A stretch of DNA of 13,718 nucleotides from Promethearchaeia archaeon (GTDB taxonomy: Archaea > Asgardarchaeota > Lokiarchaeia > Sigyniarchaeales > SOKP01): positions 1 to 13,718 of the forward strand of contig JAHQWH010000228.1 in NCBI GenBank assembly GCA_029856105.1. The letters run 5' to 3'. The notes beneath the pieces were generated by a model. That model made no database searches, was not told the origin of the DNA, and worked only from the letters and a program-made list of their open reading frames with translations. The position numbers and the translations under genes were made by a program. Shown here in pieces: positions 8,649-13,471 of the stretch (position 1 is its first letter; each line of letters begins with the position of its first letter).

Positions 8649-8903
8649 ATGACTGGTGGAAAAGACAAGGAAATAAAATACGATACGGAATTAGATACGA
8701 GGGGTTTATTTTGCCCAGAACCTCTTTTTGAATTAAGGACTTTTTCAGAATCATTAGATATTGGTCAATGTTTTAAAGTTTTAGCTGATGATCCGGCAGC
8801 AGAAGAAGATTTGACAAGGTGGGCAAAAAGAACTGGTACAGAGTTAGTTGAGTTTTTTAAAGATGGAGATGATCTAATATTTTACTTCAGAAAAAGGGAA
8901 TAA
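8649..8903 (+). CDS. tusA: TusA/SirA-family sulfur carrier protein
   Basis: 84 aa with LDTRGLFCPEP (CPxP) and VLADDPAAEEDL; AGGAGG ribosome-binding site. Confidence 0.92.
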   Translation: MTGGKDKEIKYDTELDTRGLFCPEPLFELRTFSESLDIGQCFKVLADDPAAEEDLTRWAKRTGTELVEFFKDGDDLIFYFRKRE

Positions 8904-8935: not shown

Positions 8936-10126
8936 ATGAGTATATATCTAGACAATCAGGCTGCAAGACCCGTAGACACAAGAGTCGTGGATGAAATGCT
9001 CCTATACTTTAACGAAAAATTTGCAAATCCGGCTTCACTTCATTGCGATGGAGATATTGCTACAGATATTTTAGAGACATCACGAGAAAAAATTGCAAAG
9101 TTTGTGAATGCTCCTAATCCATCTGACATCTTATTTACTTCTGGCGCGACCGAGTCAAATAATTTAGCTTTAATTGGAGCTGCTATGAGACAGAAGAAAA
9201 AAGGGAACCACATAATTATTTCTGAAATCGAACATATATCTATCTTAAACCTTGGGAAATATTTAGAAAGACAGGGGTTTAGAGTAAGCAGAGTTTCTGT
9301 AGATCGGTTTGGTATCATTAAACTAGATAAGCTTGAGAAGCTAATAACAGATGAGACAATTTTAATCTCAATTTCAACGGCTAGTAACGAAGTTGGAAGT
9401 TTACAACCAACAGCTGAAATTAGTAGGATAGCGAGAGAAAAAGGAATATTATTTCATACTGACGCTGTTGCTAGTGAAAGCGTAGTTCCAATTGATGTTC
9501 AAAAAGTTCCGATAGATTTAATCACATTATCGTCGAACGATATTTACGGACCAAGAGGGGTTGGCGCATTATACTTAAAAAAAGGAGTACGAGTTAACCC
9601 TATAATAATTGGTGGCGGTCAAGAAAGAGGTATGAGGTCAGGTTCTGAAAATATAACTGGCATCGTTGGGTTTGCTAAAGCCGCAGAGATTATGAAGGAA
9701 GAAATGCCCAAAGAATCAGAAAATTTAAAAAAATTAAGAGATAAGTTGATTAAGAATATCTTGGAAACAATTCCTAAATCGTATTTAAACGGAGATCCCG
9801 TAAAAAGACTTCCTCACAACGCACATTTTCGGTTTGATTATATCGAAGGGGAATCGTTGATATTAACGCTGAAAGAACACAATATTGCTGCTGCTACGGG
9901 CTCAGCTTGTAGTTCAAAAACATTAGAGGCATCTCATACATTAATTGCAATGGGTCTTTTGCACGAAGAAGCACACGGTAGTCTACTGGTTTCTTTAGGT
10001 AGAACTACTCGCGAATCCGACATTGATAAGCTTATAGAAGTTTTACCAAACCAAGTAAAAAGGTTGAGAAAGTTATCTCCATTAACTCCTCCAGAATTAT
10101 TAAAAAAATATGATGAGGTAAAATAA
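8936..10126 (+). CDS. iscS: IscS/NifS-family (group I cysteine desulfurase-like) protein with the PLP lysine replaced by Asp
   Basis: YLDN, FTSGATESNN, EH, NEVG, FHTDA, GGGQERGMRSG and GSACSS (Cys325) are present; the canonical SxHK-x-YGP reads SSND-I-YGP. AGGAGG ribosome-binding site. Confidence 0.92.
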   Translation: MSIYLDNQAARPVDTRVVDEMLLYFNEKFANPASLHCDGDIATDILETSREKIAKFVNAPNPSDILFTSGATESNNLALIGAAMRQKKKGNHIIISEIEHISILNLGKYLERQGFRVSRVSVDRFGIIKLDKLEKLITDETILISISTASNEVGSLQPTAEISRIAREKGILFHTDAVASESVVPIDVQKVPIDLITLSSNDIYGPRGVGALYLKKGVRVNPIIIGGGQERGMRSGSENITGIVGFAKAAEIMKEEMPKESENLKKLRDKLIKNILETIPKSYLNGDPVKRLPHNAHFRFDYIEGESLILTLKEHNIAAATGSACSSKTLEASHTLIAMGLLHEEAHGSLLVSLGRTTRESDIDKLIEVLPNQVKRLRKLSPLTPPELLKKYDEVK

Positions 10127-10130
10127 TAAA

Positions 10131-10934
10131 ATGAAATCTACTACATATTCAGACAAGGTATTGGACCACTTCAAGAATCCTCGAAACGTTGGTGAAATTG
10201 AAAACGCAGATGGAGTTGGTCGAGTTGGAAACCCAGTTTGTGGAGATCTTATGTGGATCTACCTCAAGATTGCCAAAAATGAAAAGGGTGAAGAAGTAAT
10301 TGAGGATATTAAATTTAAAACGTTCGGCTGTGGTTCAGCTGTTTCTACATCATCAATGATTACTGAGATGGCAAAAGGTATGACACTTGATGAAGCGTAT
10401 AAAATCACGCGACAAAATGTTGCTAACGAATTAGATGGACTTCCTCCTATAAAAATGCATTGCTCTAATCTAGCTGCCGATGCTTTAAAAGCTGCTATCG
10501 ACAACTATCGTTTAGGTACAGAGCCAGAAATAGAGATCGTTACGTCTTGTCAATTAGATGTCAGGATAATCCTCGGAATCGATGACTTTCTTGGGAAAGG
10601 AGTTTATAAAGAAGTACCCGCGGATTTAGAAGAGTTTAGAGAAAAAAGAATTATTATAATCGACTCGGGAGACGAATCTTTAGAGCTCGCACTTAAACTA
10701 ACAGAATATACTGGAAGAGTAATTGTTGTAACTTCTGCAAAATCAGTTCCTGGCACTGTTGAATTGAGGAAAAAATTGAAGCATTCAGATGTAAAACTAT
10801 TACAAGAATCAGAATTGATTGAAATCAAAGGAGAGCTCGATGAAGTCGAAAAAATTGTTATACACGATTTCGATGAGGACGAGAATTACGAGCTATTCGT
10901 TGATGTAGTAATAGTTTTAGATTATCGCTTATAA
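10131..10934 (+). CDS. iscU: IscU/NifU-N Fe-S scaffold fused to a thioredoxin-reductase-like Rossmann domain
   Basis: YSDKVLDHFKNPRNVG, GNPVCGD (C37/D39), FGCGS (C67) and LPPIKMHC (H110/C111) occupy aa 1-128; a further ~140 aa resemble the TrxB NADPH domain. The gene starts 4 nt after the iscS stop. Confidence 0.92.
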   Translation: MKSTTYSDKVLDHFKNPRNVGEIENADGVGRVGNPVCGDLMWIYLKIAKNEKGEEVIEDIKFKTFGCGSAVSTSSMITEMAKGMTLDEAYKITRQNVANELDGLPPIKMHCSNLAADALKAAIDNYRLGTEPEIEIVTSCQLDVRIILGIDDFLGKGVYKEVPADLEEFREKRIIIIDSGDESLELALKLTEYTGRVIVVTSAKSVPGTVELRKKLKHSDVKLLQESELIEIKGELDEVEKIVIHDFDEDENYELFVDVVIVLDYRL

Positions 10935-11098: not shown

Positions 11099-13471
11099 AT
11101 GAAAAAAGTTATAATTGTAGGTGGAGTTGCTGGGGGCGCCTCGACGGCATCTCGACTTAGAAGGTTAATGGAAGATGTGGAGATTACAGTGCTTGAGAAG
11201 GGGGAGTATGTTTCATTTGCTAACTGTGGATTACCGTATTATATTGGTCACATCATAAAGGACCAAACTCAATTGGAACTAATGACGCCAGAAGAATTTT
11301 GGGATCGATTTAGGATTGACGTTAAAGTTAATCACGAAGCAATATCAATCAACAAGAAAAAGAAAACTGTTACGGTCAAAAACCTTGAAAATGATAAAGC
11401 TTTCGAATTGGACTATGATTACTTAGTACTTTCTCCTGGAGCTACCCCAATTGTACCTCCATTTGAGGGGATCGGTGATGTTCCCGTATTTACTCTGAGA
11501 ACAATTCCAGATTCCGTTAAGATCAAACAATTTGTCGAAAAGAATGATGTTAAACACGCAACCATCATCGGGGGCGGTTTTATCGGTTTAGAAATGGCTG
11601 AAAATTTGAAACACAGAGGTGCTAAGGTAAAAATCGTGGAAATGCTTGACCAAGTTATGGCGCCTATAGATAAGGAAATAGCACAATTTGTTCACCAAGA
11701 ATTACTACTAAATGGTGTGTGTTTACAATTAGAAGACCCTGTTGATTCTTTCAAATGTGATAGTGACAATTGTTTTTATGTTATTCCTAAAAGTGGGAAA
11801 AATATTAAGACTGACATGATAATTTTAGCAATTGGGGTCAAACCAGAAAACAAATTAGCTAAGGAATCTGATTTAGAAATTGGTCCGCGAGGTCATATTA
11901 TTGTAGACGAACAAATGAAAACCTCAGATCCTTCAATATTTGCTGTAGGTGACGTAGTCCAAGTAAAAAATTTTATAACCCAAGAACCCACTGGAATACC
12001 TTTAGCGGGTCCGGCAAATAAACAAGGGAGAATAGTTGCTGATGTCATTGCTGGCCGTGATACGAAGTATCAAGGAATTTTGGGAGCCTCCGTCGTAAAA
12101 GTGTTTGATTTAACTGTTTCAACAGTAGGCTTAACTGAAAAGCAATTAAAAAAAACCGATATTAAGTACGAAAAGATTTACATACACCCTAATAACCACG
12201 CAGGTTATTACCCTGGAGCTGTGCCAATAACTCTTAAATTGTTATTTGAAATTCCAAGTGGAAAAATACTCGGAGTTCAAGCAGCTGGAGGTCCAGGAAC
12301 AGAAAAAAGGATTGATGTAATTGCTACTGTAATTAAATTCAAAGGAACGGTGTTTGACTTAGAAGAGTTGGAACTTACTTACGCACCGCCTTTTGGTTCT
12401 GCTAAAGATCCTGTAAATATGGCGGGATTTGTTGCGGCTAACGTAATTAAAGGTGATATGCCAATTTGGCATTGGCACGACATTGAAAAAATAAAAAATA
12501 ATAATAGTTTTATACTTGATGTGAGAACACCCGAAGAATATCAAATCGGAACTATTGAAGGAGCTGTGAACATAAGCGACTTAGAATTAAGAAGTAGGCT
12601 GGATGAAGTTCCTAAAGATAAAAACATTTACATTCTCTGCGAAGTGGGGTTTAGAGGCTACCTTTCAACAAGATTATTAATTCAAAAAGGATATCACGTT
12701 AAGAATTTATCAGGTGGATACAAATTATTTAAAACAGCAGCAGCAACAACCGAAGAAATAGCCGCTGAGTGTGGAGCATCAGAAGAAATTATGGAAGAAC
12801 TAGTTGAAAGAAAAACTACAATTACGGAAGATTATATAGAAGTAGATGCGTGCGGTTTATCCTGTCCAGGGCCTTTAACTGCGCTCATTAAATCTCTTGA
12901 AGCACTACCGGAAAACAAAAAATTAAAAATTTATGCTACCGATCCAGGGTTTAAAGCGAGTGTAGAAGCTTACGCAAAATTGAATGATGCCGTTACTTTG
13001 TTATATTTAGGTAAAGAAGAAGGAAAATTGGTTGCGATGTTAGAAAAGGGACCTATAACCATCGAAGATGTTTCAGCACCGGTAAAAATTGCGAAGAAAA
13101 CGAGGAAACAATTGAGAAGTCCAGATGCACCTGCTCTATCTGAGATGAGGGCAGACGAGTTATTCGAAGCACTTGATACAGATGAATCGCCAGCACTAAT
13201 GATTGACGTTCGGACACCTCATGAATATCATAGTGGACATATTAAAGACACTAAATTAATGCCGTTAGGGGAATTGATGCATAATATTGATGCTTTAAAC
13301 AAATATAAGGATGAGGAAATTGTTGTAGTTTGCCATAGTGGGGCACGCTCGATGATGGCAGCCCAATTAATGGTCAGAGAGGGATTTAAAGATGTTAGAA
13401 ACTTAACAGGTGGCATGATTATATGGTACCGGAATGGTTACCCTGTGTTGCCACCTAAAAAAGAATATTAG
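11099..13471 (+). CDS. CoA-disulfide/persulfide reductase (CoADR/Npsr-like) fused to rhodanese, TusA and a second rhodanese domain
   Basis: FAD motif IVGGVAGG, SFANCGLPYY (C43), NAD(H) motif IGGGFIGLE...VE, IFAVGD, YYPGA and YAPPF; then DVRTPEEY...LCEVGFRG (C514), VDACGLSCPGP (C585/C589) and DVRTPHEY...VCHSGARS (C745). Confidence 0.93.
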   Translation: MKKVIIVGGVAGGASTASRLRRLMEDVEITVLEKGEYVSFANCGLPYYIGHIIKDQTQLELMTPEEFWDRFRIDVKVNHEAISINKKKKTVTVKNLENDKAFELDYDYLVLSPGATPIVPPFEGIGDVPVFTLRTIPDSVKIKQFVEKNDVKHATIIGGGFIGLEMAENLKHRGAKVKIVEMLDQVMAPIDKEIAQFVHQELLLNGVCLQLEDPVDSFKCDSDNCFYVIPKSGKNIKTDMIILAIGVKPENKLAKESDLEIGPRGHIIVDEQMKTSDPSIFAVGDVVQVKNFITQEPTGIPLAGPANKQGRIVADVIAGRDTKYQGILGASVVKVFDLTVSTVGLTEKQLKKTDIKYEKIYIHPNNHAGYYPGAVPITLKLLFEIPSGKILGVQAAGGPGTEKRIDVIATVIKFKGTVFDLEELELTYAPPFGSAKDPVNMAGFVAANVIKGDMPIWHWHDIEKIKNNNSFILDVRTPEEYQIGTIEGAVNISDLELRSRLDEVPKDKNIYILCEVGFRGYLSTRLLIQKGYHVKNLSGGYKLFKTAAATTEEIAAECGASEEIMEELVERKTTITEDYIEVDACGLSCPGPLTALIKSLEALPENKKLKIYATDPGFKASVEAYAKLNDAVTLLYLGKEEGKLVAMLEKGPITIEDVSAPVKIAKKTRKQLRSPDAPALSEMRADELFEALDTDESPALMIDVRTPHEYHSGHIKDTKLMPLGELMHNIDALNKYKDEEIVVVCHSGARSMMAAQLMVREGFKDVRNLTGGMIIWYRNGYPVLPPKKEY

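Follow-up and report, generated by a model that had tools for sequence, protein, structure and literature searches.

The window analysed here, a 13,718-nt stretch of DNA, carries a row of four co-oriented genes on the forward strand. The first, tusA (8649..8903, +), encodes an 84-aa protein with a CPEP cysteine motif (Pfam TusA, E 1e-18). It is followed after 32 nt by a gene for an IscS-like protein of the Archaeoglobus fulgidus IscS2 type that lacks the catalytic lysine (8936..10126, +; 396 aa from the ATG at 8936), and after a further 4 nt by iscU (10131..10934, +; 267 aa; Pfam NifU_N, E 2.3e-46). A gap of 164 nt separates iscU from the last gene (11099..13471, +), the 790-aa product of which is a CoADR-rhodanese-TusA-rhodanese fusion according to Pfam. 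Records of close relatives include named Promethearchaeota (Loki-type) MAGs, which points to an Asgard archaeon as the host.

The IscS-like protein matches Pfam Aminotran_5 (PF00266) over the entire profile (positions 1-371 of 371, E 1.5e-73) and has the type I IscS/NifS fold of class V aminotransferases. Its AlphaFold2 model has a mean pLDDT of 93.3 and a pTM of 0.91, with low pLDDT at the loop of Cys325, consistent with this loop being flexible. By sequence, the best match in the PDB is A. fulgidus IscS2 (4eb5/4eb7/4hvk, E 2.2e-129), followed by the D199K variant of the same protein (4r5f); Escherichia coli IscS is matched at 8e-94. A. fulgidus IscS2 is also the best match by fold (TM 0.93/0.97, rmsd 1.4 Å and 51% identity to 4eb5_A; rmsd 1.0 Å to 4hvk). 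The likeness to A. fulgidus IscS proposed in the first-pass annotation of this DNA is therefore borne out by sequence and fold, and extends to an identical SSNDIYGP motif.

Loss of catalytic residues and retention of the cofactor pocket

Residues were mapped by alignment to the sequence in the annotated record of E. coli K-12 IscS. The motif SSNDIYGPR (residues 199-207; 9530..9556, +) replaces the canonical S-x-H-K-x-Y-G-P-K, and is encoded by TCG TCG AAC GAT ATT TAC GGA CCA AGA in the frame set by the ATG at 8936, exactly as first read. Asn201 and Asp202 (codons AAC GAT, 9536..9541, +) had been placed at the His-Lys site of group I desulfurases, and in the alignment they fall on E. coli His205 and Lys206, the latter being the Schiff-base lysine. 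We refer to proteins with the two arrangements as ND-type and HK-type. Ala10 and Arg11 (8963..8968, +) take the place of E. coli Thr12 and Thr13, and Ala179 (9470..9472, +) that of Gln183. The motifs that hold these residues, NQAARP and DAVA, had been described as drifting; the changes are real and co-vary throughout the ND clade. A further substitution that the earlier list did not contain is Leu351 (9986..9988, +) for E. coli Arg354. Cys325 (9908..9910, +) in the mobile loop GSACSS is intact, as had been claimed; it aligns with E. coli Cys328, and GSACSS is found in 119/119 close relatives. The residue numbers given at the outset (N201, D202, C325 in GSACSS, DAVAS at 176-180 and NQAARP at 7-12) are all right. 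Residues of the cofactor pocket are likewise kept, namely His100 (9233..9235, +; E. coli His104), Asp176 (9461..9463, +), Thr72 and Ser199.

A column comparison of 19-20 Lys-less relatives with 52 Lys-bearing ones, in E. coli IscS numbering, brings out the same pattern. In seven columns (T12, T13, Q183, H205, K206, N302 and R354), conservation of at least 85% among the Lys-bearing sequences is accompanied by a different residue in the Lys-less ones, and six of these positions are lost together in the Lys-less clade (T12, T13, Q183, H205, K206 and R354). Position 206 is lysine in 52/52 Lys-bearing relatives and aspartate in 16/19 members of the ND clade, and position 183 is glutamine in 48/52 of the HK group and alanine in 16/19 of the ND clade. 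The paired threonines at 12 and 13 (49-50/52 in the HK group) give way to A, G or S at position 12 and mostly to K, S or R at position 13. Arginine is present at 354 in 51/52 HK-group sequences vs 0/19 in the ND clade. Because this is the only arginine column that is conserved among the Lys-bearing enzymes and lost from the ND clade, R354 is taken to be the substrate-carboxylate arginine of cysteine desulfurases, a role suggested by column conservation.

Other positions are retained without exception: T76, E77, N80, H104, E156, D180, S203, R240 and C328 are found in 19/19 Lys-less sequences, and the T243 column holds serine or threonine in 18/19. In E. coli IscS, we take T76, S203 and T243 to contact the cofactor phosphate, D180 the ring nitrogen, and the lost Q183 the O3´ atom. 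Among the 19 ND-clade sequences, no newly acquired, clade-wide lysine was found that could replace the one forming the Schiff base. The sole lysine typical of the clade sits at E. coli T13 in 9/19 sequences, and this position is arginine in the window protein.

According to a review (PMC8918507), His, Lys, Cys and Arg are strictly conserved in the active site of cysteine desulfurases, and it is the Arg that binds the carboxylate of the substrate. Set against these, the IscS-like protein lacks the lysine and the arginine of the R354 column and has His100 and Cys325. It thus carries Asp202 where a canonical type I desulfurase (EC 2.8.1.7) has the aldimine-forming lysine, and Leu351 in place of the putative carboxylate arginine. 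It scores below every NCBIfam desulfurase equivalog cut-off (465.7 vs 530.75 for TIGR03402 and 291.6 vs 304 for NF002806); the HK paralog encoded in the same genome exceeds both.

Conservation in close relatives and across Asgard archaea

Among 119 close relatives (87-100% identity) drawn from NCBI, JGI, ENA and Logan assemblies, ND is present in 118 and NE in the remaining one. Because 118/119 relatives from independent assemblies share it, the motif does not result from chance or from an assembly error, a concern raised in the first-pass annotation; the codons are real.

At the level of the phylum, 249/301 sampled genomes have a match to the window protein at E <= 1e-60. Top matches fetched from 48 other Asgard genomes, belonging to more than 10 families, have SSN[D/E]xYGP and D-A/G-V-A in 48/48 cases, and none has arginine at the R354 position where this could be read (4 unread). 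The ND type is present in every Asgard family sampled, and orthologues from many families share the same motifs and synteny at 52-89% identity. Its retention in both close and Asgard relatives shows that the ND type is under purifying selection.

The genome that the window comes from encodes a normal IscS (HK, DAVQ, Arg kept) on contig C159. It also has two IscU genes that stand alone (C3 and C94). In the genus, the HK IscS genes (L001 on C159; L139, G234:C71) have no IscU within the available sequence; contig C159 ends about 120 nt past the HK iscS, and in G234 there is no IscU within 2 kb. The ND type sits beside IscU in the sampled loci except in one genome (G012:C1:1442981-1445788; L134/L143), where the ND-type IscS is followed by a class V aminotransferase instead of IscU. 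The second class V protein of this genome matches PF00266 at E 5e-120 and is 29% identical to the window protein.

Some Asgard genomes seemed at first to have no class V enzyme besides the ND type, but this did not hold for most of them. Five candidate genomes looked ND-only in a first search (one of them, G038, with a weaker second match), and a Lys-bearing class V enzyme was read in 4/5 of them: G038 has a canonical HK IscS, and G075, G055 and G239 have SufS-like proteins; the other strong match of G012 is unread. Because Lys-bearing class V enzymes occur in these genomes, cysteine-derived sulfur could still be supplied by another enzyme. Two of the genomes also encode further divergent Lys-less IscS-like paralogs (L152 in G075:C2 and L158 in G239:C1), one with N-V at H205/K206, the other with H-R and a threonine at His104.

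Phylogeny and spread beyond Asgard archaea

About 20 sequences without the lysine are found among the best 150 representatives of 50%-identity clusters (from 1.84 billion proteins). A scan of species-representative genomes recovered 80 loci, of which 14 are ND-type and 66 HK-type. The 14, which are the closest to the window, have ND in all but one (WD), together with D-x-x-A and an altered N-terminal motif; the other 66 have HK and D-x-x-Q in all cases and A-T-T-P in most. The ND-type loci are hosted by Promethearchaeota, two "Actinobacteria" MAGs, Bathyarchaeia, Methanomethyliaceae, Methanoperedens, a Nitrospinota MAG, a euryarchaeote and an unclassified bacterium.

In a maximum-likelihood tree, the 20 Lys-less rows form a single group with an SH-aLRT support of 99. 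After removal of 28 columns at and near the trait sites, 19/20 of these rows still group at 98, under LG+G4 as well as under a C20 mixture, and one sequence with an SD motif (P0146) drops out. The Asp-type clade for which the first-pass annotation had proposed a phylogeny is, as far as these alignments tell, a real one. The tree was built without the A. fulgidus sequence; the comparison with that organism is by PDB sequence match and fold superposition.

The sister of the Promethearchaeota ND-type IscS, at a support of 100, is a pair from actinobacterial MAGs (L016 and L017), which share with the Promethearchaeota loci both the TusA neighbour and the C-terminal fusion of IscU. The placement of this pair points to interdomain transfer or to mis-binned contigs. 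A second group of Lys-less IscS-like proteins (P0155, P0184, P0206, P0243, P0245, P0266, P0180, P0196 and P0248; motifs QG, QQ, NQ, RS, NN, HR, HT, NT and QS) is separate from the ND clade, with an SH-aLRT support of 97. Because it lies outside that clade, the catalytic lysine was apparently lost on more than one occasion among IscS-like proteins.

TusA, IscU and the downstream fusion

In the species-representative scan, a TusA gene is present at 11/14 ND-type loci vs 0/66 HK-type loci, as detected by BLAST with the window's own TusA only, in a set where 2/14 ND loci have almost no upstream sequence and where the relatedness of the compared loci makes the counts overstate their independence. 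In the sampled Asgard loci, tusA is also upstream in most cases. Residues W45 and E49, by which E. coli IscS contacts TusA, vary in the ND and HK groups alike and are not conserved in the window protein, so that a contact between TusA and IscS would not be readable from the sequence.

The scaffold domain of IscU is complete, with the equivalents of E. coli C37, D39, C63, H105 and C106 all present and invariant. It is followed by a C-terminal extension of about 130 aa that matches the middle of thioredoxin reductase (TrxR-like); residues 149-261 align with positions 119-231 of TIGR01292 at E 5.6e-12, far below the cut-off, and Pfam Pyr_redox is matched at E 1.5e-4. This extension recurs beside the ND-type IscS in five Asgard families (f1, f2, f4, f9 and f21) and in the two "Actinobacteria" MAGs. 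The 790-aa fusion is syntenic with tusA-iscS-iscU in four Promethearchaeota species loci (L012-L015) and in most sampled genomes of family f1.

Discussion

We consider it probable that the product of the open reading frame at 8936-10126 is an IscS of the A. fulgidus IscS2 type without catalytic activity, and that it acts as a co-scaffold with IscU and obtains sulfur from outside, most likely by way of TusA. From homology to the A. fulgidus protein, we infer that it does not desulfurate cysteine and that it acts together with IscU. The protein has kept the dimeric IscS fold, the cofactor pocket and Cys325 in the mobile loop. Following the structures and assays from A. fulgidus, the IscS-like protein would bind the co-encoded IscU, on which the nascent [2Fe-2S] cluster would have Cys325 for its fourth ligand. 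The conserved gene linkage suggests that sulfur is supplied from outside the protein, and the likeliest route would be a TusA-borne persulfide, passed to Cys325 or to IscU. TusA itself may receive its sulfur from the Lys-bearing paralog of IscS in this genome or from the rhodanese/CoADR protein encoded nearby, and free sulfide may be an alternative source of sulfur. A pure scaffold role does not account for a cofactor pocket that is so strictly kept, which counts against the co-scaffold reading as stated.

A more specific proposal is that the Lys-less IscS receives sulfur through a dedicated relay, in which TusA, loaded by a rhodanese/CoADR protein or by a separate active desulfurase, passes a persulfide to Cys325 and from there to IscU, the vitamin B6 pocket having a structural or redox role. 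In Asgard archaea and in several other anaerobic lineages, Fe-S assembly on IscU would then normally run through this cassette. We put this forward as a tentative idea, and lean against it in this full form. We think it unlikely that the protein is purely a co-scaffold fed by free sulfide from an anoxic, sulfidic habitat, with TusA serving tRNA thiolation, Moco or another pathway. For A. fulgidus IscS, a sulfide-fed co-scaffold has been proposed in the literature (PMC8918507), sulfide use has been reported for minimal archaeal systems (PMC13066941), and TusA is missing from one ND locus (L023) although its upstream sequence is long enough. Against this stand the TusA genes at most ND loci of several phyla and at none of the HK loci, the upstream position of tusA in most Asgard loci, and the gap of only 32 nt between tusA and iscS, which suggests co-transcription.

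A further alternative is that the protein is still an enzyme, either holding PLP or PMP non-covalently and catalysing a different reaction without an internal aldimine, or using another lysine. PMP-dependent enzymes without the lysine exist, e.g. ColD and E1 dehydrase, and the equivalents of E. coli T76, H104, D180 and S203 are invariant in the clade. A. fulgidus IscS was moreover crystallised with bound PMP (PMC8918507). We nevertheless regard an enzymatic role as very improbable: the putative substrate-carboxylate Arg, His205 and Gln183 are gone together with the lysine, the clade has acquired no universal substitute (the lysine seen at the T13 site in some members is Arg here), and the D199K variant of A. 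fulgidus IscS is reported to still hold PMP, the aldimine not being regained (PMC8918507). A decaying pseudogene or a sequencing or assembly artefact can for practical purposes be dismissed, because motif and synteny are conserved: ND recurs in nearly all close relatives from independent assemblies, and in Asgard orthologues of down to 52% identity the motifs and the gene order are the same. The reading frame is in addition intact and its model is of high confidence.

Taken as a non-catalytic co-scaffold, the protein bears on the puzzle posed by the A. fulgidus IscS-IscU complex, namely how a [2Fe-2S] cluster is built when the "desulfurase" cannot supply the sulfur. The sampled Asgard families have all kept the dead IscS type, in which a whole set of catalytic and substrate residues is lost and the cofactor pocket spared. 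TusA regularly lies beside this type and, in the sampled loci, was not found next to normal IscS. Together, this conservation, the loss of a residue set and the linkage make TusA a testable candidate for the missing sulfur donor. The first-pass annotation also predicted that automated naming would miscall the protein, and public sources do call it "cysteine desulfurase IscS/NifS". Names of this kind in public records inflate the cysteine-dependent sulfur mobilisation that is inferred in Asgard reconstructions.

Comparison with known systems

The papers searched contained no description of a Lys-less IscS in Asgard archaea, nor of TusA as its partner; a 2026 paper merely calls NFS1 "Asgard-associated". 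Among archaeal systems, the MIS system of Garcia et al. comprises the IscS-like MisS and the IscU-like MisU, MisS being a cysteine desulfurase (PMC13066941). The window has in common with it an archaeal gene pair for IscS-like and IscU-like proteins without chaperones or A-type carriers. Unlike MisS, the window protein, judging from its residues, could hardly be a cysteine desulfurase. Methanosarcina acetivorans IscS1 (MA0808) is reported to lack the catalytic lysine and the PLP-binding residues and was insoluble; it is paired with an enlarged IscU1 (MA0807, 24.2 kDa), and four further genes of unknown function are clustered with them (PMC7585200). By description only, the combination of a Lys-less IscS with an enlarged IscU resembles the window; TusA is not named among the neighbours of IscS1/IscU1 as published (PMC7585200).

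With the E. coli IscS-IscU-TusA system (PDB 3LVL, 3LVJ), the window shares the fold of IscS (TM about 0.93), the loop cysteine and both partner families. The E. coli enzyme uses PLP, is active and hands sulfur on to TusA, whereas the window protein is without the catalytic set. Because that set is lost, the flow of sulfur would probably be reversed relative to E. coli if TusA is indeed a partner of the window IscS.

The closest system remains that of A. fulgidus. Its IscS has Asp199 and PMP instead of lysine and PLP and no desulfurase activity, and has been proposed as a scaffold partner, one of whose cysteines ligates the [2Fe-2S] cluster held by IscU; sulfide is the suggested source of sulfur (PMC8918507). 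PMP is found in IscS alone vs PLP modelled in the complex, and the cause of this is unsettled in the literature (PMC8918507). The absence of desulfurase activity and the cysteine ligand were already cited in the first-pass annotation, and agree with the published accounts (PMC8918507; PMC7585200). The window protein and A. fulgidus IscS2 (4EB5, 4EB7, 4HVK; D199K 4R5F) have in common the SSNDIYGP motif with Asp for the Schiff-base Lys, D-A-x-A for D-A-x-Q, A-K/R-P for T-T-P, Leu at the equivalent of Arg354, the retained loop cysteine and the IscU partner. They differ in that identity is only about 50% and that position 11 is Arg, not Lys, in the window protein. At the level of the locus, the window has the TrxR-like C-terminal extension of IscU, the upstream tusA and the downstream fusion gene, and the host is an Asgard archaeon that is not known to reduce sulfate. 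The window protein thus adds no new kind of protein; it belongs to the A. fulgidus type, for which structures are solved and biochemistry is published.
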